A stretch of 64,000 bases of DNA from an uncultured Chromatiaceae bacterium (GTDB lineage Bacteria; Pseudomonadota; Gammaproteobacteria; Chromatiales; Chromatiaceae): NCBI GenBank assembly GCA_964583605.1, contig CAZOWL010000006.1, forward strand, positions 14,976 to 78,975. Reading direction: 5' to 3'. A model generated the notes under the pieces. That model was given only the letters and a program-made list of their open reading frames with translations, had not been told where the DNA came from and ran no database searches. Below, piece after piece: positions 5,841 through 64,000 of the stretch. Each line of letters opens with the position of its first letter. Position 1 is the stretch's first letter. A program made the translations under genes and the position numbers.

Positions 5841-5861
5841 TGGCTGAATTCTCCTATTGAT

Positions 5862-5926
5862 ATCGTTCCCTTACCCCCACCATTCTCCCAAATGGCGAGG
5901 GCGCGAACGTGCTTTGCGAATTTCAT
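5862..5926 (+). repeat. Partial, degenerate copy of the MITE-like repeat (second hairpin and tail only)
   Basis: ATCGTTCCCTTACCCCCACCATTCTCCCAAATGGCGAGGGCGCGAACGTGCTTTGCGAATTTCAT aligns with the 3' half of the repeat consensus. Confidence 0.7.
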
Positions 5927-6445
5927 CCTGGGCTCATCTGTGCTCTCTGGAATGGAAAGCTGCCGCCCGGGCTTCGCGCGCAGGGCTAAGAGCGTTTGCG
6001 CGAATAGGTCGTATTTATATTACATTTAGCTTTTGTTGTAAAGGCGGCTCCCTGTACCATCTTGGGCACATAGCGTAGGAAGCCGTGCACAAGACGTGTG
6101 GTGCGTTTGGTGCTTAGGCGACAGCCAAACCCTCGCTGGCCGGATAGGGGGCGCAGACTATCCGGGCCGCATGACGGCCGGGCGGACAAAGCCATCGACC
6201 CTGCGTTGGTGCGCCATCGACACGACGCGGCACACTGTGGCCGGCCAGAGGCGGGAGCGGTCCAGGGGGAAGGAGCAGGACGAAGATCAGATTCGGCTTC
6301 AGGCCACTGGAGCGGCCAGACCACGGGGACGGCTCAATGAAGCCGCGAGCGCCTGGGGGCTGCAACGAGGCGAGCACTGCTTCGCAGCGCGTCGCCCGCC
6401 CGCGCCTGGCCAGTGAGGCCAGCGCGTGGGCAGGTCGGCGGCAGG

Positions 6446-8555: not shown

Positions 8556-8595
8556 CGAATGCTCCTCCTGCTTCAGAGTTTGGCATCCCATCAAC

Positions 8596-8611
8596 ATCAA
8601 AGCTCATGCCA
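8596..8611 (-). promoter_or_regulatory. Candidate sigma-54 promoter upstream of the PspA-like gene
   Basis: The minus strand reads TGGCATGAGCTTTGAT. The -24 GG is at the right place, but the -12 element is TTGA rather than TTGC. It lies ~40 nt upstream of the GTG start. Confidence 0.3.
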
Positions 8612-8824
8612 TCCTGAGCATCATAGGAGTTTTTCCTTTCTTGTTAGGGCGGTAGGCGCTCTGACGGCCGGCCATGATGGCCATTAGATCCCAATAGGAT
8701 ATGCATTCAATGCATGCGGCCGTGCATAAATTGAATGTCCACTCGCCTCATCTCTGAGCCAGCTCCCACTCCACGGCCGTTCGCACGAGCTCCGCGTCGC
8801 AGGGCCTAGGGATGGGCTCCTGCG

Positions 8825-42711: not shown

Positions 42712-44202
42712 TTGAGCCTGTCCATCCGTACCAAGCTGTTCCTGACGTTGCTGATCGCAGGCACCCTGGCCGTGGTAGCCACGCACGCATTCGTTTACTG
42801 GTCATTTCGTCACGGATTGATGGAGCTTGCCGAGGCCCGCCAGCGGGACCGGCTGGGGCTGATCCGTGAGCGCCTCACGGAGCGGTTCCGAGAGGACCAC
42901 AGCTGGAAGCGGCTCGCCGAGGATCGGGCGCTATGGCTTGCGGCGTTGGCCGGGCATGGCGACGCACCCGGTCCGCGACACCGCTTCCGTCACCACCTTG
43001 TGCCTGAGGCGCCGAATGGCGGCTCCGGCATCCAGCGGTATCCTCGGCAGGACGCGCCCGGGGTGTGGCCCCCGTCACGCGTCCTGAGACGGGCTCGTGG
43101 CGCGGAGGGTCGGCCGCTGCCGCTCGAGATGCGGCTCATGTTGCTCGATGCTACCGGCGAGATCGTCTACGGCCGGCAGGAGCTCCTCCAGAATGCGGTG
43201 CGATTTCCACTGAGGCTGGACGGCGAGCGCATCGGCGAGCTGGCCCTGGTCCCCGGCCCACTGATCCACGAGACAGGGGAGCTGCGTTTCAAGGAGAGCC
43301 AGACCTCGGCCTTCGTCGCGATCGCCCTCGGTATGATCCTGCTCTCCGCGCTCTTCGCGTACCCGCTGTCCGAACGCCTCTCTCGGCCGATCCTGGCCTT
43401 CCGGGATGCGGCACGGCGACTCGCCGATGGTGACTTCGCTGCCCGCGTGCCGACTGACCGCCGCGACGAGCTCGGCCGCCTGGGCCGTGACATCAATACG
43501 CTGGCTGAGACCCTGGAGCAGAACGAGCAGGCGCGTCGCCGCTGGGTCGCGGACATCTCTCACGAGCTGCGCACCCCTTTGGCCCTCTTGCGGGCCGAGC
43601 TCGAGGCCCTGCAGGACGGCGTGCGTCCAATCGAGCGCACCGCCGTGGACTCGCTGCACGCCGATGTGCTGCGCCTGAGCCGACTTGTCGACGACCTCTA
43701 CGAGCTGTCGATGACCGACCTCGGCGCGCTGGCCTACCGTAAGACGGAGACCGATCTGGCCGAGGTCCTGCAGGAGGGGCTGAACGCCTACCGCGCCGAG
43801 CTCGCCGGGGCCGGCCTCGAGCTCGCGCTTGAGAACCGCCTGGGCGAGCCCGTGGTCTTGCAGACAGACCCGCACCGTCTCTCTCAGCTGTTCCGTAATC
43901 TGTTGCGCAACAGCCTCGAGTACACTGACGCTGGTGGCGGTCTTACCGTCACTGTCGGCAAAGAGCTCGATGAGCTGGTCATCGATTTCCAGGACACGGC
44001 CCCGGGAGTGCCGGTGCAGTCGCTGCCACACCTCTTCGAGCGACTCTATCGGGTCGAGGTCTCGCGCAGCCGCAACGCGGGCGGGGCCGGCCTTGGTCTG
44101 GCCATCTGCCGAAACATTGTCGAGGCGCATGGGGGGACCATTCAGGCCCGTCCATCGCCTTACGGCGGACTGTGGATCCGCATTCAGCTGCCCATTGCGT
44201 GA
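42712..44202 (+). CDS. Two-component sensor histidine kinase, BaeS-like
   Basis: Two TM helices, HAMP, a HisKA box WVADISHELRTPLALL and HATPase motifs (NLLRNSLEYT, DTAPGV, GGAGLGLAICRNIVEAHGG). TTG start. Confidence 0.85.
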   Translation: MSLSIRTKLFLTLLIAGTLAVVATHAFVYWSFRHGLMELAEARQRDRLGLIRERLTERFREDHSWKRLAEDRALWLAALAGHGDAPGPRHRFRHHLVPEAPNGGSGIQRYPRQDAPGVWPPSRVLRRARGAEGRPLPLEMRLMLLDATGEIVYGRQELLQNAVRFPLRLDGERIGELALVPGPLIHETGELRFKESQTSAFVAIALGMILLSALFAYPLSERLSRPILAFRDAARRLADGDFAARVPTDRRDELGRLGRDINTLAETLEQNEQARRRWVADISHELRTPLALLRAELEALQDGVRPIERTAVDSLHADVLRLSRLVDDLYELSMTDLGALAYRKTETDLAEVLQEGLNAYRAELAGAGLELALENRLGEPVVLQTDPHRLSQLFRNLLRNSLEYTDAGGGLTVTVGKELDELVIDFQDTAPGVPVQSLPHLFERLYRVEVSRSRNAGGAGLGLAICRNIVEAHGGTIQARPSPYGGLWIRIQLPIA

Positions 44203-44888
44203 TGAGAGACACCATCCTGATCGTCGAAGACGAAGAGCGGCTTGCCGAGGTGCTTGCCGACTATCTCAAGGCGGCCGGCTATGCGACAAACCAGCTCGGC
44301 GATGGGACGCACGCCGTCGCTTGGGTGCGCCAGCACCAGCTGGCCCTGATCCTATTGGACCTGATGCTTCCCGGCCGCAGCGGGCTCGACATCTGCCGAG
44401 ACATCCGGGCCTTCAGCGCAGTGCCAATCATCATGACCACGGCTCGCGTCGAGGAGATCGATCGCCTGCTCGGCCTCGAGCTAGGCGCCGACGACTATGT
44501 CTGCAAGCCCTACAGCCCGCGCGAGGTGGTGGCACGGGTCAAGGCTGTCCTTCGCCGCACTGGTCTCTCTCAGGGGAGTCAACCCGGGTGCCTGACGCTC
44601 GATGCGGACAGCTTACGGGTGCGCAGCGGAGCGCGTGAGGTTGAGCTGACAGCGGTCGAGTTCGCGTTGCTGCGGACCCTGCACTCAGCGCCGGGACGGA
44701 TCTTCTCTCGTGACCGCCTGATACAGCGGATCTACAACGATCATCGGATCGTCTCCGACCGCACGATCGACAGTCACATCAAGAAGCTCCGGCGCAAGCT
44801 TGCGGAACTGGCTCCAGAGCTGGATCTCATCCACTCGGTCTATGGCGTCGGCTATCGCTACGAGGAGCGACCGATGCGAATCGCCTGA
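44202..44888 (+). CDS. OmpR-family response regulator, BaeR-like
   Basis: ILIVEDEERLAEVLADYLKAAGY...LILLDLMLPGRSGLDICRDIRAFSAVPIIMTTARVEEIDRLLGLELGADDYVCKPYSPREVVARVKAVLRR is very close to E. coli BaeR. The start overlaps the kinase stop (TGATG). Confidence 0.85.
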   Translation: MRDTILIVEDEERLAEVLADYLKAAGYATNQLGDGTHAVAWVRQHQLALILLDLMLPGRSGLDICRDIRAFSAVPIIMTTARVEEIDRLLGLELGADDYVCKPYSPREVVARVKAVLRRTGLSQGSQPGCLTLDADSLRVRSGAREVELTAVEFALLRTLHSAPGRIFSRDRLIQRIYNDHRIVSDRTIDSHIKKLRRKLAELAPELDLIHSVYGVGYRYEERPMRIA

Positions 44889-44953
44889 AGACCATGCCAT
44901 TCGCTAGCTTCCTGAGAAGCCCGGCCCGTACACCACTTTCCCTTCCGGACCCA

Positions 44954-45080
44954 TTACAATGAATTTCGCGAAGCACGTTCGCTCCCTCGCCCTCTGGGAG
45001 AGGGTTGGGGTGAGGGAACGATCAAGGGCGAGGCGACCTTTCATCATCTGGGGTGGCTCGCCTCGCCCCATGATCGTTAG
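44954..45080 (-). repeat. MITE-like repeat, full copy (left boundary of the lower-G+C cassette)
   Basis: TTACAATGAATTTCGCGAAGCACGTTCGCTCCCTCGCCCTCTGGGAGAGGGTTGGGGTGAGGGAACGATCAAGGGCGAGGCGA...CTCGCCTCGCCCCATGATCGTTAG. Confidence 0.9.
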
Positions 45081-45099
45081 CAGAAGAATGGAGATACGC

Positions 45100-45795
45100 A
45101 TGACCGTTATAAAGAAGGCTTGGCTCTTGTTGTCTTGTCTATTGTTGCTCATCCTGTTCTATGGCACGGCTTACGCCGAAGGAGCAGCAAGTGCATCCGA
45201 TGAGTCGGCCCAAGCATCGGACACCGACAAGTTCTCAACACGCAGGCCCGTGGTGATCAACTATTTTGGCAAGGTCAATGCCACAAATGCGGGTTATCTC
45301 GCGCGGATCATTCTCGACGAGGTCGCGAACAATAACCGCGACTTCCACATTAACATCAATAGCACTGGCGGCGACCCGGATTCAGGGCTTGCGGCATTCA
45401 ACATCATAGAAAGCCTTCCGGTGACCGTTACGACATTCAACGCCAATGAGGTGCAATCGGCGGCCGTCCATTTATACTGCCTTGGCGAGAGAAAATATGC
45501 CTATCCTGAGTCATTCTTTATGATCCACCCTGTGAAATGGAAGATCGATGATCTAACAATGACCGATATTCAGGCAAAATATCTTCACTCCCAGGTTATC
45601 GATCAACGAATAGGGAATATCGCAGAATCCTGCATGGATATTTCGAGAGACGAAATTCGGGAGTATTTCAACGGCAATCAGGATTTCTACTTCACTGCGG
45701 AGCAGGCGAAGTCGATCGGTCTGGTCGATGAGATATCGAGCAGGAATTTCATTCCGAAAAAGGTCTATTTGGTTTCCGACGACTATCGGGGGTAG
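45100..45795 (+). CDS. Secreted or membrane-anchored ClpP-fold serine protease (NfeD/SDH-type)
   Basis: Signal/anchor MTVIKKAWLLLSCLLLLILFYGTAYA. NINSTGGDPDSGLAAFNII, a catalytic-Ser context ANEVQSAAVHLYCLG and a His context SFFMIHPV follow the ClpP/NfeD order. The gene is conspicuously A/T-richer than all its neighbours. Confidence 0.7.
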   Translation: MTVIKKAWLLLSCLLLLILFYGTAYAEGAASASDESAQASDTDKFSTRRPVVINYFGKVNATNAGYLARIILDEVANNNRDFHININSTGGDPDSGLAAFNIIESLPVTVTTFNANEVQSAAVHLYCLGERKYAYPESFFMIHPVKWKIDDLTMTDIQAKYLHSQVIDQRIGNIAESCMDISRDEIREYFNGNQDFYFTAEQAKSIGLVDEISSRNFIPKKVYLVSDDYRG

Positions 45796-45862
45796 GGCCA
45801 ATGAGAATAGACACAACAGGCCCTATTCTTGGACCTGAACGGGGCCTTCGTCCCGTCACTAC

Positions 45863-45981
45863 CTGACGATCATGGAGCGAGACGAGCCACTCCGGATGAT
45901 GACATATCGCCTCGCCCCCTGATCGTTCCCTCACCCCAGCCCTCTCCCAGAGGGTGAGCGAGCGTGCTTCGCGAGCTCCAT
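45863..45981 (+). repeat. MITE-like repeat, diverged full copy (right boundary of the lower-G+C cassette)
   Basis: CTGACGATCATGGAGCGAGACGA...TCGCCTCGCCCCCTGATCGTTCCCTCACCCCAGCCCTCTCCCAGAGGGTGAGCGAGCGTGCTTCGCGAGCTCCAT. Confidence 0.85.
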
Positions 45982-46390
45982 AGTGAGCGCGGGTCGACGC
46001 TTCCGGCTTACCTATAAGCCGCATCTCTCCTTTGGGACCTCAGCCAGCCTCGCCTAGTACGCTGGTGACACTGAAATCGCGCCTCCATCGCGCAACGACG
46101 CGAAGACGCGTCGGTGTGAAGAAATGGCGGGCTCACTGTGAGCAAGCCAACCCCTGATCCCGAAAAAGACCAACTAAACTGTTTGGAATAGTGGCCGCGG
46201 ATGCCGCTCGAGGCTGGGTCGATCCGTATGCTGGAGCTCCGGGCGACTCGATTGGTGCTTGGCAGCTCCACCAGTGGCGAGAGATCCCGACGTTTCTCTG
46301 CCCTGTTTGCGTTTTCAACCGATGCGTGCTCGCGGTTCGAGCTGAGCGGTCCTTCCCCGAAACCATCCGTAGCGACCGGAGCGTGACGCG

Positions 46391-49300
46391 ATGAGCGATA
46401 GAGACGACGGCCTGGGACTTTCGATCCCCGGCATGGTGGTCGCGGCAACGCTGCTCGGCGTGGTGTTCTTCAAGAGCGTACCGTTGGAGACGACGCGGCC
46501 AGCGCCGGAGGCCCAGCTACCCGATGCGTCGGTGACCGCCGAGCGGGCGCCGGCACGGCTTTGGGAGGATCCGTTCAATGCCGTGTATCGGCATATGCCT
46601 AATACAACAGACAGGCCGGAGGCGCCTGATACCGGCGGCGACCCGCCGGCCAACCCCGACTTCTGCTCCACTGACACCGTCGGCGCGCGGGCAGAGCGGG
46701 TCGACCCGCACGAGGCCTCGGCCCCGCCCTGCATCGCCGACCAGATCGCGCATCGCAACCAGCTCGGGCGCAAGCCGCGCATCCTGGCCGTCATGCTCCC
46801 AGGCGCGACCTCCGTCGAGTCCGGCGAGAACCGCATCCGGCGCCGCTACGCGGTCCTCTCCGCCCTGCACATCGCCGGCTTCGTTCCGGATGACGCAACC
46901 CATATTGGCTGGTTCCGTACGATCCCCGGCTCGGACCTGCCGGCGGTGATCCCCTACGAGTGGATGACCGCCACCGACGGCGCGGCCGACCCGGGCTCGG
47001 TGCTCGTCCTCTGGCTCGACGACACGCCATTTCGCCAACGTCTCCACCGGGGCCTGACCGGTCTGGTGGCCGGCATCCTGCCGAAGGACCAGCTGCCGGC
47101 GGACGGCAAGGTCGATGTGGCGGTGCTTGGGCCGTCGTCGTCCGACGGGCTGGTCGGGCTGCTGCGGGAGGCGGCTGCCATCGCCGCTCCAACAGTGGCA
47201 AGCGGCGCCCAGATGCCGGCCTACGACGCGGGCATGGCTGGCATGATCGGTTTGGCCGGCACGGGCACGATTGGAGCGACCCCCGTCTGGCCAGATCGGG
47301 CGTTCGAGATCCGTCTCGATGTGTACTCGGCAACGGCGACGGCAGCCGACGACGAGTTGTTCGATCGCGCCGGGATCGAAGGCGACGGAAGGACCGTTGC
47401 TGACTATCTGTTTTGCCGCCTCAACCTGGACCTGCACCGCACCATCGCCGACGATCGGGTCTTAGTCGAGATACTCGCCGCGGAGCTGGGCGCCCGTTTC
47501 GATCGGAGCTCCGGACCACTGCTCGGGCTGGCTATCGGCCTGCGCAAGGCAACGTCCGCGGTGCGCGAGGCTACCGTCGATCGTCTGCGCGGCACAATCC
47601 CGCCTGTGGGCTCAGGCAAGGGAGGCAAGCACGTCGTCCTGGTCTCGGAGTGGGACACCGCCTACGGCCGCTCACTGCCGATCAGTCTCTGCAAGGCCCT
47701 CGAGGCCGAGCTCGGTAAGACGACCCCCTGCGCTCACGTCGACCAGCGTGGGGCCGGCTACCCGGCAGGAGAAAGTGAGTCGCAGGGAGGAGCGGACTTG
47801 CCCTGGGTGCATCGCTTCACCTACATGCGCGGCCTCGACGGGACCTTGGGGGCGACCGGGGGGCACGCCGGTGATCACTCGCTTGCCGACGCACTGGCCG
47901 AGTCGGCCCAAGGTACGCCGCAGCTCGACTACCTGCGGCGACTCGCCGGCCGCCTCGTCTCGCTGGAGCGAGGCTTGCCCAGTGGCCACTCGATCGCGGC
48001 TGTGGGTATCCTCGGCAGCGATATACACGACAAGCTGCTCATCCTGCAGGCCCTGCGACCAGCGTTCCAGGGTGCGGTGTTCTTCACGACGGACCTGGAC
48101 GCACGACTCTACGAGCCGGCACAGCTGCAGTGGACACGGGGCCTGGTGGTCGCCACCGGCTTCGGTCTGCAGCTCGAGGGAGCCACGGGTGCGGCGCCGA
48201 CGGGCATCGATTGCCAGGATTCGATCCCGCCGTTTCGCAGCGGCTACCAGACTGCGTTCTTCTACGCGGCGCGCGAGGCGCTCGGTGCCCTACCGGAGGC
48301 CTGCCGACTCGGCACCGAGCCGGGCTATCGCCAGGTTGAGGCAGCCGGCCAGGCGCCAGCGCCGGCCCGGCTGTTCGAGATCGGGCGCACGGGTCCGGTC
48401 GCGCTGATCCCGCCGAGGCCCGCGGGTGACGACCAAGGGGCCGATCCTGCCTCATCCGCGCCGGGCGCTCGTGCCCTTGGTAAGCAGGACACGGGCCAGG
48501 CCCGGCTCAACGCCTGGCTTGACGTACTCCTGCTGCTGGTGATGGGCTGGGGCCTGTTTCTGGTCTTCTACCACCGGCATGTGCCCCTCTGGTGGGGGGC
48601 GCTGGGCCAAAGGCTGCGCCGATCCCCGCTCGGCACCAGCCTCGGCCTGATCCTGGCCCTGTTGGCGCTCGGCGGTCTGTTGGCTTGGCTCTGGCGCGAT
48701 CTGGAGGTGCTCGCCTGTCCCCTTGCCCTCGATGCGACGGCCTGTGCCGAGCCGTTCAGCGTCACCAGCGGCATCAGCATCTGGGCGCCTGTCTACCTGC
48801 AGCTGTTGGCCGTGGTGCTGTCGGCGCTGTTCATCGCCCGCGTGCTGGTGCGGTTTCGCGCCAACATGCTTGGCCTCTCGAGCCGGTATTTCCTTGGCCG
48901 GGGCTGTGGGATCGAAAGACGACCTGCGCCAGCCGGGCTGTGGGCGGCGTCGCATGCGGAGCTGCGGCACTGGGCGCAAGTAGGGCTGCGCTGGCTCCGG
49001 CGTCCGGGCTGGGACCGAGCCGACAGCTTGGCGGATCAGGTCTCGGCGAGGGCCGACACCGCGGCGGATACAGGGCACCCTAGCGAGCCGCTGGATACCG
49101 ACGATGCGCTGAGGCTCTGGCTACAGTACTGTCGGCGATCGCGATTCTGGTGGCGGGTGCTGCGCGTCGTGGCCCTGTCCATCCTGCTGTTCGCTGTCGT
49201 GGTTGCTCTGTATTGGGCGACCGGGGGCGGTGGCAACAGCCCGGTCCGCGATGCTGAGCTCGCCCGGATCTTCCTGGAGCTACGGCTCCTCGGCGTGCTC

Positions 49301-49897
49301 CTCGGCGGCATGCTCGCCTTAGCCGTGCTGGACATCGCGCTGGAGTGCCGGCGCTTCATCGACCAGCTTTCGCGTGCCTCGGTCGCCGAGGAGCCGGCGC
49401 GTTGGCCGAGCCAGGTTGCCGCCGGCTTCCAGGCTAACCTGCACCTGGACCCCGCCCGGCTATCGCCTTGGATCGCGCTCAGCGTGATCTCCGAGCACGC
49501 GGACCTGGTCATGCGCCTGGTAGTCTATCCGCTGATCGTGCTCGTGGTCCTGGTGGTCGCCCGGCTGCCCTGGCTCGACACCACCAGCCTGCCGCCGAGC
49601 ATCCTCATCGTCTACCTGGTCTTCGCCTTCTACATCTTTTTCGTCGCCGTCGGCATCCAACGCGCGGCGAACGGGGCCAAGGCCCGAACCCGCGAGCACT
49701 ACCAGACCCTGCTTGACGGCAACCGGAACGCCCCAGTCGAGGATCCCAAGACCAACACCCAGCTTGAATGTCTGATCCGCCAGGTCTCCGAGCTGCACGA
49801 CGGTGCCTTCAAGCCGCTGCCGGCACGGCCGCTCGTGCGCATGGCGCTGCTGCCGTTCGGGGCGCTTGGGGTGGGGCTGTTGGAGTTGTTCGGCTAA
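46391..49897 (+). CDS. Orphan 1168-aa polytopic membrane protein of unknown function
   Basis: Uninterrupted ORF with native-like G+C. One N-terminal TM (IPGMVVAATLLGVVFF) is followed by a ~650-aa soluble region with alternating strand/helix blocks (RILAVMLPG, VDVAVLGPSSSDG, HVVLVSEWDTAYGRS, AAVGILGSDIHDKLLILQAL, AVFFTTDLDARL). At least 7 further TM helices and a conserved-looking tail (GAFKPLPARPLVRMALLPFGALGVG) follow. I recognise no family motif. Confidence 0.75.
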   Translation: MSDRDDGLGLSIPGMVVAATLLGVVFFKSVPLETTRPAPEAQLPDASVTAERAPARLWEDPFNAVYRHMPNTTDRPEAPDTGGDPPANPDFCSTDTVGARAERVDPHEASAPPCIADQIAHRNQLGRKPRILAVMLPGATSVESGENRIRRRYAVLSALHIAGFVPDDATHIGWFRTIPGSDLPAVIPYEWMTATDGAADPGSVLVLWLDDTPFRQRLHRGLTGLVAGILPKDQLPADGKVDVAVLGPSSSDGLVGLLREAAAIAAPTVASGAQMPAYDAGMAGMIGLAGTGTIGATPVWPDRAFEIRLDVYSATATAADDELFDRAGIEGDGRTVADYLFCRLNLDLHRTIADDRVLVEILAAELGARFDRSSGPLLGLAIGLRKATSAVREATVDRLRGTIPPVGSGKGGKHVVLVSEWDTAYGRSLPISLCKALEAELGKTTPCAHVDQRGAGYPAGESESQGGADLPWVHRFTYMRGLDGTLGATGGHAGDHSLADALAESAQGTPQLDYLRRLAGRLVSLERGLPSGHSIAAVGILGSDIHDKLLILQALRPAFQGAVFFTTDLDARLYEPAQLQWTRGLVVATGFGLQLEGATGAAPTGIDCQDSIPPFRSGYQTAFFYAAREALGALPEACRLGTEPGYRQVEAAGQAPAPARLFEIGRTGPVALIPPRPAGDDQGADPASSAPGARALGKQDTGQARLNAWLDVLLLLVMGWGLFLVFYHRHVPLWWGALGQRLRRSPLGTSLGLILALLALGGLLAWLWRDLEVLACPLALDATACAEPFSVTSGISIWAPVYLQLLAVVLSALFIARVLVRFRANMLGLSSRYFLGRGCGIERRPAPAGLWAASHAELRHWAQVGLRWLRRPGWDRADSLADQVSARADTAADTGHPSEPLDTDDALRLWLQYCRRSRFWWRVLRVVALSILLFAVVVALYWATGGGGNSPVRDAELARIFLELRLLGVLLGGMLALAVLDIALECRRFIDQLSRASVAEEPARWPSQVAAGFQANLHLDPARLSPWIALSVISEHADLVMRLVVYPLIVLVVLVVARLPWLDTTSLPPSILIVYLVFAFYIFFVAVGIQRAANGAKARTREHYQTLLDGNRNAPVEDPKTNTQLECLIRQVSELHDGAFKPLPARPLVRMALLPFGALGVGLLELFG

Positions 49898-55533: not shown

Positions 55534-58002
55534 CTAGTGTACCGTCTCAAGGGTGTGTGCCTGGCCATCGTCGTCGAGACGCAGCTCCGCCGCGCGCTGC
55601 ACCGCGTCCCAGTGCCACGCCTCGGCTGCGGCTGGGCGCCCGTCAAGGACCAGCGCCGCAGGCCGCTCAGGCAAGTGCAGGCGCAGGATCAGCGCGCGGG
55701 GCGTTGGCGTGTAGCGGCCTCTGCGAGCGCCGATCGCGAGGCCCGCTCCAGCGTCCTGCCCGGCGAGCCAATAATCTGTCTCGGCGATCAAGCCGTCGCG
55801 ATACCCGAAGCCGTCCCCGGAGTCCTCGATCAGCGTCCAACGTCCGCTCGCGCTCGGGTCGGGGTAGAGCTCCAGTGTGAGCTGGGTCAGCGGCTCGGCC
55901 GTGGATTGGCGAATATTGCCGAGGGTCAGGATACTGCCGCCGCGAATCAGGATCGGGATGGTCTCGAGTGGGGCATCGGCCACCCAAGCGCCCGCCTGCG
56001 CCGCGTCCGAGACGCAGGCGCCGGTGTGAAAATCGTACCAGGTGCCAGGCGGTAGCTCGACCAGGCGCCGGCGCACGCCGGGCTGATAGACCGGGGCGAT
56101 CATTAGCTGCGGGCCGATCATCACCTGATCCTCGATCTGATGCAGGTGGGCCGTCTCTGGGAAGTCGTAGAGGAGCGGTCGGAGCAGCGGCTCGCCGGTT
56201 TGGTGGGCGCGATGCGCCAGGGTATATAGGTAGGGCAGCAGGCGGTAGCGGCGCTCGATGGCCGCTCGGGCCACCCGCTCGATCTCGGGTCCGAACGCCC
56301 AGGGCTCCTGCGGGCGACTGCGATAGTGGGTGTGGCCACGCATGAAGGGGTAGAAGGTGCCGAGCTCGATCCAGCGCGCGAAGAGCTCGGGAAAACAGTT
56401 GTGGTAGAAGCCGCCGATATCCACGCCGACATGCGGCGAGCCGCACAGCCCCATGCTGGCCAACTGCGGCAGGCTCATCTCGAGATGCTCCCACCAGGCG
56501 CTGTTATCCCCCATCCAGGTCGCCGCCCAGCGCTGCACGCCGACGAAGCCCGAGCGCGTCAGCACCCATGGTCGGCGATCCGGCCGCAGACGCGCGAGGC
56601 CTTCACTGGTGGCTCGTGCCATCAAGGCCCCGTAGAGGTTGTGCGTCTCGGCATGCAGCGCCTCGCCCTCATCGCCGTGCCGGGACGCAAGCGGGATTGG
56701 CTGATCGCGGACCCCGCGCACCCCGAATGGTCGATCGACAATTGCGGGCTCGTTCATATCGCACCAGACGCCATCGACGCCGGCCTCGAGCAGGCCGGCA
56801 TGCTGTTCGCCCCACCAGCGTCGGGTGGCGCTGCGACAGAAATCCGGGAACAGGGACTCACCGGGCCAGACCCAGCCGGAGAAGAGCTCGCCGTTGGGCC
56901 GGCGCACGAAGTGGCCCTCCGCGACGCCCTCGTCAGCCACCTGGTATCCGGCATCAAGAGCCTTCTTGACGCCAGGATCCACGATGACCACTGCCCGGAT
57001 GCCCTCGGCATGGAGGCTCGCAACCGTCTCGGCCGGTCTCGGAAAACGCTGCCGGTCCCACGTGAAGACGCGATAACCATCCATGTAGTCGATATCGAGA
57101 TGGATTGCCTCGAGCGGGATGCGCCGCGCACGGAACTCGCGGGCGATGGTCCGCACCTCTTGATCGGAGCCGTAGCTCCAGCGTGATTGGTGGTAACCGA
57201 GTGCCCACAGCGGCGGCAATGCCGGCCGACCCGTCAGCCGCGTGAGCTGCTCGACGACGACAGCCGGCGTCGGGCCGGCGAAGACGAAATAGTCCAGCTC
57301 GCCGCCAAGGGTGAAGAGGGTCAATACCCCTTCTTGCTCAGCCCCGACATCGAAGGCGCTATACCAGCTGGAGTGGAGGAAGAGCCCCCAGGTGAGGCCC
57401 GGGCGCATAGCGAGGAGCACCGGATGGGCCTGATACATGTTGTCGTTGCCTCGGCAGTGGCCGGGCGAAGAGCGGTCGACGGTCCAGTGCGTCAGGCGGC
57501 GATGGCGGCGGTCGAGTCGACCGGTGCGCTGGCCGAAGCCGAAATAGGCCTCTCCCGGCGCCATACGCTTGTCGAGAAAGCAGGCCGTTCTGGCTGGTCC
57601 TGGCGGTAGCTCGGTGTCCGGGGTCTGCTCCAGCGCGGTCTCGCGCACGGACATCTCGCGCCACTGTGGTGGGCCGATGTCCTCACCGAGCGGCCATCCA
57701 GCCGGCGTTTGGAACGCGACCGCGCCGGTCGCCAGGTCGATGCTCGCGCTAAGCCCATCGGCGCCCAGGTGACATGTTGGCCCCTCCTCGGCGACCGTCA
57801 GCTCAGCGGACGGCAGATCCAACACAGGCTCCCAATTGCGGCGTGGCGCAAACCGGCCCGTCGGCGAGAAGCGGACCCTCAAGATGTCCGCCGCGACGGC
57901 GTCAATCTGAGTGCACCCAACCTCGTGGAAGGCGCGGAATGCCGAGGCCAGGATCTCCGTGCCCGTAACAGGCCCGGGGTGGCGGCGGGGAAGGTCGTGC
58001 AT
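55534..58002 (-). CDS. Glycoside hydrolase family 31 (alpha-glucosidase-like)
   Basis: VDGVWCDMNEPA (GH31 nucleophile motif WxDMNE), HLDIDYMDGYRVFTWD and WMGDNSAWWEHL. Confidence 0.85.
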   Translation of the reverse strand: MHDLPRRHPGPVTGTEILASAFRAFHEVGCTQIDAVAADILRVRFSPTGRFAPRRNWEPVLDLPSAELTVAEEGPTCHLGADGLSASIDLATGAVAFQTPAGWPLGEDIGPPQWREMSVRETALEQTPDTELPPGPARTACFLDKRMAPGEAYFGFGQRTGRLDRRHRRLTHWTVDRSSPGHCRGNDNMYQAHPVLLAMRPGLTWGLFLHSSWYSAFDVGAEQEGVLTLFTLGGELDYFVFAGPTPAVVVEQLTRLTGRPALPPLWALGYHQSRWSYGSDQEVRTIAREFRARRIPLEAIHLDIDYMDGYRVFTWDRQRFPRPAETVASLHAEGIRAVVIVDPGVKKALDAGYQVADEGVAEGHFVRRPNGELFSGWVWPGESLFPDFCRSATRRWWGEQHAGLLEAGVDGVWCDMNEPAIVDRPFGVRGVRDQPIPLASRHGDEGEALHAETHNLYGALMARATSEGLARLRPDRRPWVLTRSGFVGVQRWAATWMGDNSAWWEHLEMSLPQLASMGLCGSPHVGVDIGGFYHNCFPELFARWIELGTFYPFMRGHTHYRSRPQEPWAFGPEIERVARAAIERRYRLLPYLYTLAHRAHQTGEPLLRPLLYDFPETAHLHQIEDQVMIGPQLMIAPVYQPGVRRRLVELPPGTWYDFHTGACVSDAAQAGAWVADAPLETIPILIRGGSILTLGNIRQSTAEPLTQLTLELYPDPSASGRWTLIEDSGDGFGYRDGLIAETDYWLAGQDAGAGLAIGARRGRYTPTPRALILRLHLPERPAALVLDGRPAAAEAWHWDAVQRAAELRLDDDGQAHTLETVH

Positions 58003-58130: not shown

Positions 58131-58793
58131 TTAAGGGCCCCAGGCCCTGAGCATGCGCTCGATCTGCACGTACTCGATGTCCGGTCGCGCCCGCAGCTGC
58201 TCAGCCACCCGCTCGGCCGTGCCGGCCCAATCGATCATGAGCTGCAGCGTGCCGTCCGACTCGACGGTCGCTTGCGCCACGTAGGGAGTCGATCGCAACA
58301 GCGACTCGGCCAGTGCCGCGACCTCCTCCTCTTGGCTCCCGGCGTCTTGCCGCGCCAACACGGCCGCCGCGTCGGTGTCCGCGGCGAAATGAATCAACAG
58401 GCGGTCCTGGTCGGCGAACGGGGTGTCGGCAGGATCCGGTCTTGTCGTGACCGCATCGACCGCTGGGTCGGCCTCGACATGCCCAGCGATCTGCGCCAGG
58501 GCCGCCGCGCGTGGGATCCGCAGCACCAGCTCGGCCCCCGAAGTGACCCGCTCTGCCTCCAGGGGTGCACCGATCGACTTGGCGATGGAATCGAGCCAGG
58601 GCGCGACGGCCTCGGGGGCAAAGGCCGCGCCTCTTAAGACCTCCTGGATATGGCGGGCGGCAGGATTTGCGCCGCTCGGTTTGACGATAAAGGTCGCGGC
58701 CACAACGGGCTCCAGGGCGGCGCTGCTGCAGGCCCATCCAAGCCACAGTAGCGTCAGCACCGCCGGCAGCAGCAGAGAACGATATCCTCTCAC
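58131..58793 (-). CDS. Secreted protein of unknown function, third gene of the subtilase-exosortase operon
   Basis: Signal peptide MRGYRSLLLPAVLTLLWLGWACSSAA, Ala/Asp/Glu-rich, no recognisable motif. It starts 40 nt after the exosortase stop on the same strand. Confidence 0.65.
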   Translation of the reverse strand: MRGYRSLLLPAVLTLLWLGWACSSAALEPVVAATFIVKPSGANPAARHIQEVLRGAAFAPEAVAPWLDSIAKSIGAPLEAERVTSGAELVLRIPRAAALAQIAGHVEADPAVDAVTTRPDPADTPFADQDRLLIHFAADTDAAAVLARQDAGSQEEEVAALAESLLRSTPYVAQATVESDGTLQLMIDWAGTAERVAEQLRARPDIEYVQIERMLRAWGP

Positions 58794-58833
58794 AGTAATC
58801 TCCTCGTCATAAGGGTTTCCGCGCAGGCGCGCA

Positions 58834-59409
58834 TCAAGGTGCGCGGGCCGTCCCGACTCGGTCGCCGCTGACCGCAGTCACCCCTCGCGTCGCCCGGCGA
58901 TGCCAGAAGATCAAGAAGGCCGCCGTACTGATCACGACGACGCTGTACCCGAGCACGTCGTGCGTCAGTGTCCAGTAGTCGGGATGGATCACGGCGACAT
59001 GGAAGGCGGCCAGGATGCGCAGCAGATTGATGCCGATGGCCAGCGCTAAGCCGCTGGCGATACCGACGGCCTTGACGACAACGGGCTGGGGCAGGCTTGC
59101 CACCCAGGCGATGATGAGCAGCCCGGGGACGACGCCCGTGCAGCCATAGACGATCCGCAGTCGGAAACCGCCCGGGTCGATGATCGTCGCGTCGCTGACG
59201 GTCACTGGCAGGCCGGTCATCGCCAAGGCGAGGCCATAGATCTCGGCGTTCAGGCGATTCCACGGGCCGAAGATCTCGCGCAGACCAGGCGTCCACTCGA
59301 TGACGGCCACCAAGACCAGCACCACGCCCAAGGCCAGCGCCTCGCGGGGCGGACGTGCCCCGCGAGCGCCCAGCGATGGCCAGAGCGGGCCATCGGATCC
59401 TGGCCTCAT
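58834..59409 (-). CDS. Minimal exosortase/archaeosortase-family transpeptidase (191 aa)
   Basis: Multi-TM protein with the family's Cys/Arg/His signature in the right order: RIVYGCTGVVPGLLII, GINLLRILAAFHVAV. The ATG overlaps the subtilase stop (ATGA); the track ORF N-terminus (to 59559) overlaps the subtilase gene. Confidence 0.7.
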   Translation of the reverse strand: MRPGSDGPLWPSLGARGARPPREALALGVVLVLVAVIEWTPGLREIFGPWNRLNAEIYGLALAMTGLPVTVSDATIIDPGGFRLRIVYGCTGVVPGLLIIAWVASLPQPVVVKAVGIASGLALAIGINLLRILAAFHVAVIHPDYWTLTHDVLGYSVVVISTAAFLIFWHRRATRGVTAVSGDRVGTARAP

Positions 59410-61286
59410 GCGCGGGACAGCGAGCGGCCCCGCCAACCGAGCCAACCAAGCATGAAGGCAACCAAGGCCCCCAGGCTCCAGAGCGACATGCCCGAGCCGC
59501 TCTGCGTCACCGTGACCTCGACGCAGACCGTCTCGTCGCCGGTGCTCACGTTGACGCACACCGGGCCACCGACGCCGGCTGCGGTCAGGGTCGCCGCGAC
59601 ACGGCCCTCGGCGTTCGTGTTGCCCGTCGCCGGTTTCACGGTCACGACGCCCGTCCCTTGGCTAGCGAACTCCACCGGGACATCAGATTTCGGCGCACCC
59701 GCCATCATCACGGTCGCAACGATACTCGCCGACTGCTCAGCCTCCAGACCGACCTTCATCCGATCGACCCGCAGCATGAGCTTGTCGGGGGCCGGCTCGC
59801 TGGTGCTGAGCAGGCCAGCCCCGCAGGGCTTCGGACATTCGGTACTGTCGCGAGGCAAGGCGGAGGCCTGGAGCCTCTGCAGTACCTGATCCGGGGTCAG
59901 GTTGGGCTCTTCCGCCAACAACAGTGCGGCAACACCGGCGACATGCGGTGCGGCCATCGAGGTGCCGTTGTAGAGGGCATAGCCGCCCTGCACCATGCTC
60001 AAGACGCCGTCGTCGTTACCGTCACCGTTCGCATCCTGGGAGACATCGCCGCCCGGGGCCATGATCTCGACGCCGGTGCCGAAGTTGGAGTAACGCGTGA
60101 CCAGGCGCCCTCTGTAGTCGCTGGCTGCAACCGTGATGACGCCGTCACAGCCCGCGGGTGTGTAGCCAGCCACATCCCTCGCCGAGTTACCGGCCGCCAC
60201 CACGACCGTGGTGCCGGCCGCCACGGCATCATTGATCGCCGATTGCGTGGCCGGCGAGCTGCTGCAGGTCCCAGTGCCGCCGAGGCTCAGGTTGATGACC
60301 TGCGCCGGCTGCGGGTTGTTCGGCACACCGGGCACGGACAGGCCCGCGGCCCAGCGAATTGCGTCATTGATGTCCGCGGTCGTTCCACCGCACTTACCCA
60401 GCACCCGCACCGGAAGGATGCGCGCCTGCCAGTTGATCCCGGCCACGCCGTCGCCATTGTTCGTCTTGCCGACACCGATGGTCCCAGCGACATGGGTGCC
60501 GTGCCAGCTCGAGGGGAAGTCTCGCGGCGGATAACCCTGCCCGCACTCACCCTGCGAGATGGCATCCCCGGGATCGGTCGGATCGGCATCGCGGCCGTCG
60601 CCGTCGTTGGCGATGAAGGTCGAACTGATCATGTCATAGCCCGCCCCCAGGTTCGGCGAGCCGCTGATGTCGGGATGATCGGGCAGGATGCCAGTATCGA
60701 TCACGGCCACCGTCACATTCGGATCACCAGTGGTCTCCGCCCAGCGCTCAGGCAGCCCGATGCCGCCCGGGACCTGCCCGGACCCGCTGCCCTGCGTGAA
60801 GTAGTGCCATTGCTCGGGGTAGCGCGGATCATCCGGCGTCACGGCGAAGTGCTGCCAGACCCAGTTCGGCTGCGCATACTCGACGTCATCGCGCGCGTTG
60901 AGGCGCTCCACTGCCTCCATCACCCGATCGGCCTCGGGTGCGCCCGCCTCCATGATTCCCATCCCCTGCGCGCCGACCAGCTTGAGGATCTGCTCGCCGC
61001 CAGAGGTCAGCCTCTCGGCATCCGGTAACGCCATGCTCGATTGCAGCTCCGCCCCCAGGGCGCTGACACCGGCAATCGGCTCCTTGAACTTGACGATCAC
61101 CTCATCGGCGACGAACAGCGGCTCTGATGGCATCGGCATCACGTCCATCTCGGGCTGCATCGCCGGTTGGGCCATTACCGCACCGGCGATAACAGCCAAC
61201 GATAACAGCGACACGGCACCCAAGCGCCTGACGCGCTCTAGGTGCCGCCCTGAGACGGGCGCTCGCTTCGCAATCTCTCGGCTCAT
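59406..61286 (-). CDS. Secreted subtilisin-like (S8) serine protease with Ig-like domain and C-terminal sorting signal
   Basis: Strong RBS (AAGGAGAAGG) and signal peptide. I9-like propeptide (VIVKFKEP...DVEYAQPNWVW). Catalytic D (VAVIDTGI), H (SWHGTHVAGT) and S (NGTSMAAPHVAGVAALL). The C-terminus is SGSGMSLWSLGALVAFMLGWLGWRGRSLSRA (motif, hydrophobic helix, basic tail). Confidence 0.9.
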   Translation of the reverse strand: MSREIAKRAPVSGRHLERVRRLGAVSLLSLAVIAGAVMAQPAMQPEMDVMPMPSEPLFVADEVIVKFKEPIAGVSALGAELQSSMALPDAERLTSGGEQILKLVGAQGMGIMEAGAPEADRVMEAVERLNARDDVEYAQPNWVWQHFAVTPDDPRYPEQWHYFTQGSGSGQVPGGIGLPERWAETTGDPNVTVAVIDTGILPDHPDISGSPNLGAGYDMISSTFIANDGDGRDADPTDPGDAISQGECGQGYPPRDFPSSWHGTHVAGTIGVGKTNNGDGVAGINWQARILPVRVLGKCGGTTADINDAIRWAAGLSVPGVPNNPQPAQVINLSLGGTGTCSSSPATQSAINDAVAAGTTVVVAAGNSARDVAGYTPAGCDGVITVAASDYRGRLVTRYSNFGTGVEIMAPGGDVSQDANGDGNDDGVLSMVQGGYALYNGTSMAAPHVAGVAALLLAEEPNLTPDQVLQRLQASALPRDSTECPKPCGAGLLSTSEPAPDKLMLRVDRMKVGLEAEQSASIVATVMMAGAPKSDVPVEFASQGTGVVTVKPATGNTNAEGRVAATLTAAGVGGPVCVNVSTGDETVCVEVTVTQSGSGMSLWSLGALVAFMLGWLGWRGRSLSRA

Positions 61287-61527: not shown

Positions 61528-62430
61528 TTAACGGGTGACTGCGCTTCCCGCGATGGCGCCGAGCGCCGACCAGCGGGAGCCGGGGAACAGGAGCAGCCTG
61601 GGCAAGGCCCTGTAGGCACGGAAGGAAAACCGGCTGACCCAACCAAGCTCGTTTGAATCCCACAGGCGCGACCCGCGTCCGTTCGCGCTCAAGGCGTCGA
61701 ACAACGTCATTGGCGTAAACGCGCTGCCCTCAGACGTTAGCCGATCGAGGATCTCATCCAGCCAACCCAGGGTCAGCCAGGGCTGACGCTCCGCCGGTGC
61801 CGGCTGGCTGCGGAACTCGGCGAAATTGTCGGGATGGAAGACCAGTACGGCCCAAGGATTGAAGCGCGCGTACTGCGCGCCGACGTGAAACAGGTCTGCC
61901 ATGTGCGATCTGTCGAAGCGGCTGGTCTTCGGGATGACGATCGGCACGGAAATCGATTTCGGTCCAGATCGGGCGCGAATGCCTCCGCCCAGGAACCGGA
62001 ATCCGGTCTCGCGAGCCGCGATCAACGTGAGCCGGTCGAAGGTATTCCACGGTGGAACGAAGCCGTTGATCGGCGAGGAAAACGCGCGCTCGAGCACGTC
62101 TCGGCCCCGCTTCATCATCGCCAACTGCTCCGCCAAGGGCCGGCCCGCGAACTCCGTGGGCACCCCGCTGCGGGTGGTTGCATAGCGCTGGTGCGCGAGA
62201 CCGTGCAGAGCGACCTCGATCAGGCCTTGCTGGTGGGCGTCGACCAGGTGCGGGACGTCGGAGGCCGTGAGCGGCCGTGTGACATCGGCAGGATCGTACG
62301 GAACGACGGCAACCGTCAGCGGTACATCGTGCTTGCGGAAGAGCGCCAGGATCCTGGCTTCGAGGCTGTGATCGCTCGATGCGGACGGATCATCGAAGCG
62401 GAAGCTGATGCGCACGTTGTCGCCCTCCAC
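61528..62430 (-). CDS. Polysaccharide deacetylase-like (NodB/DUF2334-type) protein
   Basis: ISFRFDDPSA..., LTVAVVPY, EVALHGLAHQ and GFVPPWNTF. GTG start. Confidence 0.65.
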   Translation of the reverse strand: MEGDNVRISFRFDDPSASSDHSLEARILALFRKHDVPLTVAVVPYDPADVTRPLTASDVPHLVDAHQQGLIEVALHGLAHQRYATTRSGVPTEFAGRPLAEQLAMMKRGRDVLERAFSSPINGFVPPWNTFDRLTLIAARETGFRFLGGGIRARSGPKSISVPIVIPKTSRFDRSHMADLFHVGAQYARFNPWAVLVFHPDNFAEFRSQPAPAERQPWLTLGWLDEILDRLTSEGSAFTPMTLFDALSANGRGSRLWDSNELGWVSRFSFRAYRALPRLLLFPGSRWSALGAIAGSAVTR

Positions 62431-62477
62431 GAAACCGCCAATTCAGCGCCGGATGGCTGTCGCACCGCCTCGTCCAA

Positions 62478-62720
62478 TCATCGTCGCTTGGCCGATTCGA
62501 CGAGGCGGGCGAGGGCGGCGATCGTGTCCGCCTCGACGGCCTCCTCGATCGGAATGTCAACCGCGAACGTGTCCGCGATCGCCTCCAACAGCTGGATATG
62601 CCCCAGGGAGTCCCACCGCGGCACCGAGCCCGGACCCGAGTCCTCGCTCAGTTGCTCGATCGCGCAGGAAAAGGTCTCGCATGCCAGCCGTTTGATTTCC
62701 TCAATCGTAGCGCTCGCCAT
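62478..62720 (-). CDS. Acyl carrier protein
   Basis: 80 aa, acidic, four-helix pattern with the phosphopantetheine-attachment context PRWDSLGHIQLLEAIADTF. Confidence 0.8.
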   Translation of the reverse strand: MASATIEEIKRLACETFSCAIEQLSEDSGPGSVPRWDSLGHIQLLEAIADTFAVDIPIEEAVEADTIAALARLVESAKRR

Positions 62721-62731
62721 CGATAAGCCTC

Positions 62732-64000
62732 TCAGCTCAGTCTTCGCAGTACTGTCGGCCCGTCAATCTCGAGCATCCGACGCTGAATCTTGCCGTTGCT
62801 CGTCATCGGGATCTCCGAAACCGCATAGTAGGCGACTGGAACCTTGATCGGGGTAAGCTCCGCGGCGAGCGCAGCGTCCAACTCTCCCTTGGAGACCGCA
62901 TCTCGTAGGACCAGAAACGCGACCGGCGCGGCGCCGCGTGTCGGGTCCTGTATGCCTCGCACGGCAGCGCTCTCAACCATCGGTAGACGGTTCAACGCCG
63001 CCTCTATTTCCAGCGGCGAGACCTTCTCCCCAGCGACGTTGAATATGTCGTCAACCCTTCCGAAGAGCTTGACGTAGCCACTATCGATGCATGCCAGGTC
63101 GCCGGTTATCAGGTAGCCGTCTCGGGTGAACGCCTCACGGGTGCGTTCCTCGTCGCCGAGATAGCCCGGAGAGATATTCTTGCCCCTGACCGCCAGCACG
63201 CCGATCTCGCCGTCCGGTAGGCTCTCGTGGTTCTTCGGATCGATTATACGGGTGTCCACGCCCGCCATCGCACGGAGGCTCGAGCCTTCGACAAAACGCG
63301 GATCGGAGTCGGAGACGAAGGCGAGCCTCGGACAGGCCTCGGTCATACCGTAGTTGTTGAACACCTTCGCGTTGGGGAACATGGCCCTTATCGGTTGCTG
63401 AAGGCTCGTGTCGAATGCCGCACCGGCGGAGCACACGACCTTGACCGACGGCAGCTGAACCCGCGTCAGGCGGGAGAACTTCGCCAAGGTCAGGAACGTG
63501 GACGGCACACCGCAAAACGATTTGATGTCCTCGTTTTCGATCGTTCGGATCACTGCCAACGGATTGCGCAGGCCCGCCATCAGCCTCACGTAACCACCGA
63601 CGAATAACTGGCACAGAACCTGCGAAATCAGGCCATAAGCGTAGTACAGCGGCAACACGGCCACCGTGGAGGCCGCCTCTCGATAGCCGAGGTAATCGGA
63701 CACGGCCGAGCACGATGAAACCAGGTTCTCGTGCGTCATGATCACACCTTTGGGAGACCCGGTCGTCCCCGATGTGAACATGACCAGGGCCGGACGAGCG
63801 GGATCTGCCTCGGACAAGGGCTCCAAGCCCACATAGGCATGCGATGATAATGGCTCCAAAACCGTTCGAACCTTGCAGGTTCGCAAGATTCCGTCGAGCG
63901 GGTGATCGGGTAACTGAGGATCTATCGGTACCGGCGTGTTACCGCTATACAACGTCCCGATCAGCGTAACGATGAAATCTATCGATGGCGTTGCCTTTAC
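62732..64000 (-). CDS. AMP-dependent acyl-CoA/acyl-ACP ligase (5' end beyond the window)
   Basis: FTSGTTGSPKGV (AMP-binding motif I), YGMTEA, ITGDLA and SNGKIQRR. The frame stays open upstream of the track start to position 64000 (..KATPSIDFIVTLIGTLYSG..), so the gene is truncated by the window edge. Confidence 0.85.
   Translation of the reverse strand, partial: VKATPSIDFIVTLIGTLYSGNTPVPIDPQLPDHPLDGILRTCKVRTVLEPLSSHAYVGLEPLSEADPARPALVMFTSGTTGSPKGVIMTHENLVSSCSAVSDYLGYREAASTVAVLPLYYAYGLISQVLCQLFVGGYVRLMAGLRNPLAVIRTIENEDIKSFCGVPSTFLTLAKFSRLTRVQLPSVKVVCSAGAAFDTSLQQPIRAMFPNAKVFNNYGMTEACPRLAFVSDSDPRFVEGSSLRAMAGVDTRIIDPKNHESLPDGEIGVLAVRGKNISPGYLGDEERTREAFTRDGYLITGDLACIDSGYVKLFGRVDDIFNVAGEKVSPLEIEAALNRLPMVESAAVRGIQDPTRGAAPVAFLVLRDAVSKGELDAALAAELTPIKVPVAYYAVSEIPMTSNGKIQRRMLEIDGPTVLRRLS

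Follow-up and report, generated by a model that had tools for sequence, protein, structure and literature searches.

The locus described here raises the question of whether a small exosortase can be dedicated to a single protease, and of what a third gene that accompanies the pair may contribute. It lies in a stretch of 64,000 nucleotides (nt) from an uncultured Chromatiaceae bacterium (assembly GCA_964583605.1, contig CAZOWL010000006.1, positions 14,976 to 78,975), which we call the window and number from its first letter. Three open reading frames (ORFs) on the minus strand, in the order protease, sortase, third gene, make up the locus. An earlier reading made from the letters of the window alone (the sequence-only reading) had described them as a module of one substrate, one sortase and one partner, possibly of an undescribed sortase/substrate class. 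In our analysis this module was found to be conserved as a unit on 19 contigs, with the same gene order in about 13 lineages, an arrangement far beyond chance. We consider it rather probable that the locus is a self-contained protease-sorting cassette, comprising a tethered protease, an exosortase that would cleave it and a prodomain-like partner that would act in trans.

The three genes and their conservation

The features of the cassette are listed below (aa, amino acids).

59406..61286, minus strand: pre-pro-subtilase, predicted sole substrate, 626 aa, PF00082 at 189 bits; laid out as signal peptide, N-prodomain, S8 catalytic domain, immunoglobulin (Ig)-like domain and C-terminal sorting tail
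60864..61133, minus strand: N-terminal prodomain of the protease, residues 52-141, ending in ...DDVEYAQPNWVWQHF; PF22148 at 24.6 bits
59814..60719, minus strand: S8 catalytic domain, residues 190-491; Peptidase_S8 match
59508..59732, minus strand: Ig-like (Big_1-like) domain, residues 519-593; PF02369 at 18.6 bits, below its cut-off
59409..59501, minus strand: tripartite C-terminal sorting tail, residues 596-626; sole NCBIfam match IPTL_CTERM (TIGR04174)
58834..59409, minus strand: XrtH-like mini-exosortase, 191 aa; passes TIGR04178 and PF09721
59140-59142, 59017-59019 and 58960-58962, minus strand: predicted catalytic codons of the sortase, for Cys90, Arg131 and His150, respectively
58131..58793, minus strand: secreted protein, a tandem prodomain-paralogue, 220 aa; signal peptide at about residues 1-26
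58440-58703, minus strand: domain 1 of the third protein, residues 31-118
58158-58403, minus strand: domain 2 of the third protein, residues 131-212

The genes are closely joined. The TGA stop of the protease overlaps the ATG start of the sortase within ATGA at 59406-59409, and the third ORF begins with GTG 40 nt past the sortase stop, with a GAGGAG Shine-Dalgarno sequence ahead of it. The ORFs, the overlap and the gap are all as the sequence-only reading had placed them. The ATG is taken as the real start of the sortase because the orthologues, two with a later called start among them, share the N-terminal stretch M-x-P-x-[PS]-D-[GA]...PPREALAL. The database gene call for the window sortase (P0001) uses a downstream TTG and gives 165 aa, which is probably 26 codons too short as judged from this segment, and the call for the orthologue at locus L001 (P0004) likewise begins too late. 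In both cases the longer form is preferred on account of the conserved segment and of an ATG that overlaps the 3' end of the protease.

The order of a tail-bearing S8 protease, a mini-exosortase and the third protein was seen in every relative whose contig allows it. The loci outside the window are grouped as follows.

Close clade: L001, L002/L003, L004, L005 and L006/L095
Sister clade: L087-L094 and L096-L098, including a Pseudomonadales metagenome-assembled genome (MAG), GCA_051008535.1

Sortases of the sister clade are 29-36% identical to that of the window and their proteases 49-53%, while across the whole cassette family the proteases are 49-68% identical between orthologues. Most loci have unrelated flanks; only contigs of one lineage, and the window and L004 with a GH31 glucosidase in common, depart from this. 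Protease and sortase keep their overlap, which measures 4 nt in the window, about 28 nt in L006 and 17 nt in each of L001, L002 and L004; over all cassettes the junctions are tight, with adjoining genes that overlap by 4-28 nt at the one extreme and lie about 200 nt apart at the other. All of the sequences come from MAGs or metagenome contigs, and the cassette recurs in uncultured Gammaproteobacteria. A profile scan with the sortase alignment found no relative in 185,579 species-representative genomes. The window itself is placed in the Gammaproteobacteria by its PurL, whose best identity to a species representative is only 71% and which shares 66-68% identity with relatives of Chromatiales, Sedimenticola and Thiodiazotropha.

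A dedicated sorting system has been described by Haft as an enzyme and a single target that are encoded by consecutive genes and co-occur regularly; for the JDVT-CTERM target and an intramembrane protease, the genes were adjacent in 16 of 17 cases (10.1101/2023.06.07.544157). The cassette agrees with this one-to-one description, with its gene order on the 19 contigs, no second tail in the flanks, and a sortase and a single target that are consecutive and co-occurring. It differs from the systems of Haft by its XrtH-like exosortase, by having a protease as target and by the fixed presence of a prodomain-like partner as third member.

The protease and its prodomain-like partner

The protease was correctly recognised in the sequence-only reading as an S8 enzyme with the catalytic Asp, His and Ser. 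The Pfam scan gave Peptidase_S8 (PF00082) at 189 bits, and the residues D197, H262 and S443, together with N367, are present and invariant in six orthologues. Two of the accessory domains need to be restated. The proposed I9 propeptide exists as a prodomain, but its match is to PF22148 (Fervidolysin_NPro-like; 24.6 bits, cut-off 21), and the Pfam scan gave none to the classical Inhibitor_I9 model PF05922. The Ig-like domain is seen as a weak Big_1 match, which in the window copy stays below the cut-off (PF02369, 18.6 bits against 34.9); the precomputed Big_1 match carries a "weak" flag in the orthologues of L001 and L091 and no flag in those of L090 and L094.

The third protein had been described as secreted and without recognisable domains. 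Its N-terminus is indeed like a signal peptide, likely to be cut after SAA and ahead of a conserved (L)EP. A lipoprotein was ruled out, as the Cys before the cleavage site is not conserved. The absence of domains holds for the direct Pfam and NCBIfam scans of the window copy, which gave nothing significant, but not for the comparison of profiles, from which two prodomain-like domains emerged. BLASTP aligned the third protein with the prodomain of the neighbouring protease itself at 34% identity over 64 aa (E 2e-6). With hhalign, an alignment of 18 members of the third-protein family matched the prodomains of six cassette proteases with a probability of 96.5%. When the domains were taken separately against the protease prodomain profile, the values were 96.0% for domain 1 (E 4e-9) and 97.1% for domain 2 (E 6e-11), and the two domains match each other with an E-value of 2e-11. 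PF22148 is matched at E <= 0.1 by 10 of the 18 members, and Inhibitor_I9 by one. By profile comparison, then, the third protein is homologous to the subtilase prodomain (PF22148; I9-like in MEROPS).

The predicted structure and the C-terminus point in the same direction. An AlphaFold2 (AF2) model computed with five homologues (predicted local distance difference test score, pLDDT, 85; predicted template modelling score, pTM, 0.77) places, after a signal helix, two beta-alpha(alpha)-beta-beta-alpha-beta domains in tandem, an order of secondary structure that fits the prodomain fold twice. In the wider family, the protein ends in ...D[VI][DE]YAQPNxxV plus 3-10 residues, which mirrors the prodomain C-terminus DVEYAQPNW. 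In known subtilase-propeptide complexes, it is this C-terminal segment of the prodomain that lies in the active-site groove in the manner of a substrate (PMC6993865). The third protein is made of two tandem paralogues of the N-terminal prodomain of its neighbouring protease. The family has no Pfam or NCBIfam model; only one member (P0175) has a precomputed PF22148 match, and any names given in databases are simply "hypothetical protein".

The most divergent homologue with a long contig (P0174, on a contig of JGI 3300056388) shows which of the two neighbours the third protein belongs to. It directly follows a 762-aa S8+CARDB protease, and no exosortase is present beside that protease. The third protein is therefore a partner of the protease and not of the sortase, since this distant homologue adjoins an S8 protease without a sortase. 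The occurrence next to an S8 protease in the absence of any sortase also rules out an accessory or acceptor of the sortase. The P0174 locus further suggests that the pair of protease and prodomain-paralogue is older than the association with the sortase.

We read the third protein as a candidate stand-alone propeptide-like inhibitor or chaperone. Of the roles that had been offered for it earlier, inhibitor and chaperone are favoured, and acceptor is argued against, because the third gene is a tandem paralogue of the protease prodomain. Stand-alone propeptide-like proteins that are potent inhibitors of subtilases are known from POIA1, yeast PBI2, Arabidopsis SPI-1, TgMIC5 and SUB1-ProM (PMC6993865). 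POIA1, PBI2 and SPI-1 belong to MEROPS I9, and TgMIC5 and Plasmodium SUB1-ProM are added to them. Like all of these, the third protein is the product of a separate gene and mimics a subtilase prodomain, and like SUB1-ProM it is encoded beside its protease. The listed inhibitors differ in being all eukaryotic and single-domain, whereas the third protein is bacterial and a tandem of two domains; it is moreover paralogous to the prodomain of its neighbour, it shares an operon with a sortase, and its inhibition of the protease is only predicted.

It is also conceivable, though in our estimate doubtful, that the third protein is no inhibitor and serves instead as a trans-acting foldase or escort for the folding or secretion of the protease, or as a decoy substrate. 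Subtilase prodomains serve both as intramolecular chaperones and as inhibitors (PMC6993865), and homology to a prodomain fits the two roles equally. The protease, however, retains an intact prodomain of its own, so that an additional foldase seems redundant, and the stand-alone propeptide-like proteins that have been characterised inhibit or regulate their subtilases (PMC6993865).

The exosortase, the sorting tail and the XrtH/IPTL-CTERM pair

The sortase passes the generic models of exosortases and archaeosortases (TIGR04178, 29.3 bits against 23; PF09721, 30.0 against 25.7) and fails all curated models of exosortase subfamilies. The best of the latter is XrtH (TIGR04177) with 54.1 bits against a cut-off of 86, and the relatives in other cassettes score 50.5-80.7 bits on the same model. 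XrtA is not among the NCBIfam matches of the window sortase at E <= 1.

Cys, Arg and His form what is suspected to be the catalytic triad in the exosortase/archaeosortase superfamily (10.1101/2023.06.07.544157). In an alignment of 39 small exosortases, F82, C90, N128, R131 and H150 are invariant; a set of 150 sortase representatives keeps the Cys and Arg without exception and the His with a conservation of at least 90%. The sequence-only reading is thus confirmed in its choice of Cys (YGCTG, C90) and Arg (NLLR, R131), and the Cys is present in a proper alignment. The His it had chosen (FHVAV, H137) is replaced by Q or Y in close relatives, while H150 in THDVLG is invariant, so the conserved triad is C90/R131/H150, which we predict to be catalytic. 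The AF2 model of the sortase (pLDDT 71) shows five long helices, at 22-39, 48-64, 93-105, 110-141 (carrying N128 and R131) and 143-181 (carrying H150), and a beta loop (70-85) just before Cys90.

The searches show how the sortase relates to others of its size. Among 5.8 billion proteins, a word-indexed search returned no more than three further sortases, with identities of 57-59%. When 1.84 billion representatives were searched exhaustively with HMMER, three scored 203-296 bits and the next relative 104 bits, past which the matches form a continuum (122 at E <= 1e-10 and 1,335 at E <= 1e-3). Nine of the next-ranked matches were scanned (P0011-P0021); they are 169-186 aa long, and their best model is XrtH at a sub-threshold 61-81 bits. 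When an XrtH E-value of 3e-24 is taken as the estimated equivalent of the 86-bit cut-off, 49 of the 150 nearest representatives match some NCBIfam model at this level, of which 45 match XrtH, two XrtX, one archaeosortase B and one XrtM. About 100 of the 150 nearest small exosortases are therefore probably unclassified XrtH-like enzymes with no substrates assigned. Given the continuum and the sub-threshold XrtH scores of its neighbours, the window sortase is placed by these profile searches in a large and mostly uncurated group of XrtH-like enzymes. A tblastn search of an XrtH-like protein against plasmids, aimed at an annotated locus of canonical XrtH, gave no match.

The protease ends in ...SGSGMSLWSLGALVAFMLGWLGWRGRSLSRA, in which a motif SGMSLWSL is followed by a hydrophobic helix, GALVAFMLGWLGW, and a basic end, RGRSLSRA. 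The sequence-only reading had called this tail tripartite, without Pro-Glu-Pro, and nearest to the IPTLxxWG-CTERM class. This description was borne out: when the tail was scanned alone against NCBIfam at E <= 10, the sole match was IPTL_CTERM (TIGR04174), at 13.4 bits against a cut-off of 20.5, and neither a Pro-Glu-Pro motif nor a match to any PEP-CTERM model at E <= 10 was found. The cut-off is reached by none of the orthologue tails that were scored either. The tails of L001, L002 and L004 score 19.8, 19.5 and 19.9 bits, which is short of it by about 1 bit or less, and also weakly touch the "midcut-by-XrtH" model; that of L006 scores 13.3 bits. In the sister clade, the scores are 15.1 and 10.6 bits, with one tail giving no match. 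The motifs are as follows.

Window: SGMSLWSLGAL
L001: PGMSLWGLAAL
L002: PGISTWGLAAL
L004: PGMSLWSLAAL
L006 and L095: PGV[SA]GWGLAAL
Sister clade: VVPTLGL, VVPALSL, VVPALEL, VVPGIGL and VVPMLGL

After each motif come some 17-20 hydrophobic residues and then an R-rich end. This layout of motif, helix and basic end stands at the extreme C-terminus in 10 lineages including the window, that is, in every one that has the 3' end of the protease on its contig. Within the cassette loci, the tail is carried by the protease alone. A hidden Markov model (HMM) built from nine tails and run on 795 ORF C-termini from the window and 12 loci matched only cassette proteases, and a pattern scan of the 64-kb window found no other such tail.

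Both partners lead to one known pair, the sortase having its best subfamily in XrtH and the tail its sole match in IPTL-CTERM. XrtH is likewise a small enzyme (its model has 158 positions and the cassette sortases have 162-192 aa), and the tripartite tail and proteobacterial host are shared as well. The consensus of IPTL-CTERM is IPTLSEWG, with which the register P-x-x-S-x-W-G-L agrees, as does VVPTLGL of the sister clade. On the other hand, the cassette lies below the curated cut-offs (54.1 against 86 bits for the sortase and 13.4-19.9 against 20.5 for the tails), its clade is well separated in the exhaustive search (203-296 bits, then 104), and it is one-to-one with an orthologous S8 protease and has a conserved third gene for which NCBIfam holds no model. 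Because both best matches fall in this pair and yet below its cut-offs, the system is, on the evidence of these profiles, a divergent and sub-threshold relative of XrtH/IPTL-CTERM, of the same stock and not an unrelated new class. The suggestion of an undescribed class therefore stands insofar as neither partner reaches a curated cut-off (XrtH, 54.1 against 86; IPTL_CTERM, 13.4 against 20.5), and gives way insofar as the best matches lie so near a known class; it is better put as an uncurated, dedicated branch of the XrtH/IPTL-CTERM kind. What is new is that one orthologous S8 protease is held in a fixed pair with an XrtH-like exosortase, that the sorting signal has distinct variants, and that there is an obligate tandem prodomain-like partner, which has no family model.

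The same data bear on a simpler explanation, in which an ordinary XrtH/IPTL-CTERM system was missed by the curated models, several more IPTL-CTERM proteins are encoded in the genome, the protease is one of many substrates, and the adjacency is mere convenience. We regard this as unlikely. XrtH and IPTL-CTERM are the top matches, the tails of three orthologues come within about 1 bit of the cut-off, the estimated XrtH threshold is reached by 45 of the 150 nearest sortases, and the host is a gammaproteobacterium, a group in which IPTL-CTERM has been reported. Nevertheless, the window sortase stays 32 bits under its cut-off, the exhaustive search gives three representatives at 203-296 bits and then falls to 104, the orthologous protease stands together with its tail and the sortase on the 19 contigs, and no second tail-bearing ORF was found in any flank examined.

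Proposed sorting scheme, genomic surroundings and significance

If the locus is a self-contained cassette, its three products might act as follows. The pre-pro-subtilase would be exported through its signal peptide and held in the inner membrane by the IPTL-CTERM-like tail. The translationally coupled five-helix XrtH-like exosortase (Cys90/Arg131/His150) would recognise the motif at the membrane face, PG[MIV]SxWGL in the clade of the window and VVP[TAGM][LI]xL in the sister clades, and cut at this motif, which abuts the helix, so removing the helix. The protease would then be released, or moved to another anchor for display at the surface. The third protein would bind the protease in trans as a propeptide-like inhibitor or folding helper, keeping the enzyme latent until it is sorted. 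What the analysis observed is the structure of the genes, the family models that match and those that fail, the conserved residues, the order of the three genes, the one-to-one distribution of the tail in the sequence at hand, and the homology to the prodomain; that the sortase cleaves, what becomes of the new C-terminus, and that the third protein inhibits are steps that we infer. For cleavage, release and re-anchoring, the models are other exosortases, archaeosortase ArtA, rhombosortase and the PEP-CTERM systems, which Haft has summarised; in the literature consulted, direct processing data are reported only for relatives, namely ArtA, rhombosortase and PEP-CTERM proteins (10.1101/2023.06.07.544157).

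Among these systems, rhombosortase and GlyGly-CTERM combine a tripartite C-terminal signal with a deeply membrane-embedded enzyme, and an anchoring moiety is attached afterwards (10.1101/2023.06.07.544157). The cassette has the same kind of tail and a membrane-embedded enzyme. The two enzymes belong to unrelated families, a rhomboid Ser protease in the one case and a Cys/Arg/His exosortase in the other, and rhombosortase is one-to-many and lacks a prodomain-like partner. The serine protease VesB of Vibrio cholerae is a known substrate of rhombosortase and would be the closest analogue of a sorted protease.

Several observations weigh against the reading of the locus as a self-contained cassette. 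The motif in the window has lost the Pro and Gly of the orthologues (SGMSLWSL against PGMSLWGL) and scores only 13.4 bits, and the window copy of the protease might for this reason be a poorer sorting substrate. The search for further tails covered 64 kb of the genome, besides 12 other loci, and more substrates with such a tail may lie elsewhere. Foldseek found no match in the PDB for the AF2 model of the sortase, which is itself of moderate quality (pLDDT 71), and a literature search on XrtH, IPTL-CTERM and exosortase H found no relevant paper. On the side of the third protein, PF22148 reaches 14.4 bits against a cut-off of 21 on the window copy, and the family profile gave nothing meaningful against PDB sequences. 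Foldseek with the whole two-domain model returned from the PDB only non-significant tandem alpha/beta proteins (KH, ACT and RRM; best E 0.011); a weak match to the subtilase chain 8c4z, "ProteinT protease", had an E-value of 0.26. This search was probably impaired by the two-domain query.

It is very improbable that the C-terminal helix is a permanent membrane anchor to which the exosortase-like protein is irrelevant, being inactive or serving another substrate: the degenerate motif of the window tail and a sortase cleavage that is only predicted would allow it, but against it stand the invariance of the Cys, Arg and His, a short motif that is kept across clades right next to the helix, and the strictness of translational coupling and gene order.

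A bolder version of the cassette reading, which we put forward as speculation and would not expect to hold, takes the sortase as a new exosortase class with its own signal (VVP[TAGM]LxL / PGMSLWGL) and couples C-terminal sorting mechanistically to the latency of the protease. The tandem decoy prodomain would keep the tethered protease inactive in the periplasm, and cleavage or re-anchoring by the sortase would commit it to the surface and to activation. If true, the third protein would be the first two-headed inhibitor of the stand-alone propeptide-like kind in bacteria, and the sortase the first exosortase for which a single enzyme client is defined.

The neighbours of the cassette include purL, mfd, a GH31 glucosidase and a BaeS-type kinase. 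Thirteen other window ORFs were scanned against NCBIfam or Pfam; those that matched a family (mfd, a chemoreceptor, the GH31 glucosidase, and a BaeS-type kinase along with its response regulator) are chromosomal genes of ordinary kinds, and neither XrtA nor an extracellular polysaccharide (EPS) locus was found among the 13. Directly upstream on the same strand (61528-63952, minus) are an acyl-CoA/AMP ligase, an 80-aa carrier protein (PP-binding) and a DUF2334/polysaccharide-deacetylase-like protein, a trio that is not beside the cassette at other loci. With such neighbours, and with an upstream ligase that scores 173 bits against a cut-off of 592 on the exosortase-A-associated ligase model, a nearby EPS locus of the XrtA/PEP-CTERM type was ruled out. 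Immediately downstream, the GH31 alpha-glucosidase (55534-58002 in the window, 1606-2754 in L004) indicates that these two lineages share synteny beyond the cassette.

Two further regions were observed. The stretch 44000-49897 of the window has a lower GC content (58% against about 66%) and contains a 278-aa ClpP-like protein (44959-45795; PF00574), which is weakly similar to phage head-maturation proteases. The ORF that comes next (46391-49897; 1,168 aa) matches nothing in Pfam or NCBIfam, and the stretch could be a mobile or defence element. At L090, in a Pseudomonadales MAG, a classical sortase (PF04203) and a VIT/VWA protein lie at 4944-8688, just past the cassette and separated from it by one short-chain dehydrogenase gene, so that two unrelated sorting systems are near neighbours there.

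As to what the cassette means, its value is that of a compact and useful system for experiments; conceptually it is no surprise. A single substrate with an easily assayed activity would offer a compact handle on the action of a mini-exosortase, that is, on the cleavage site, re-anchoring and release. The third gene adds a tandem, bacterial version of the stand-alone propeptide-like subtilase inhibitors, for which the examples in PMC6993865 are all eukaryotic. The family also exposes a gap in curation: about 100 of the 150 nearest small exosortases are without an NCBIfam match at the estimated XrtH cut-off, and the family of the third protein is without a model.

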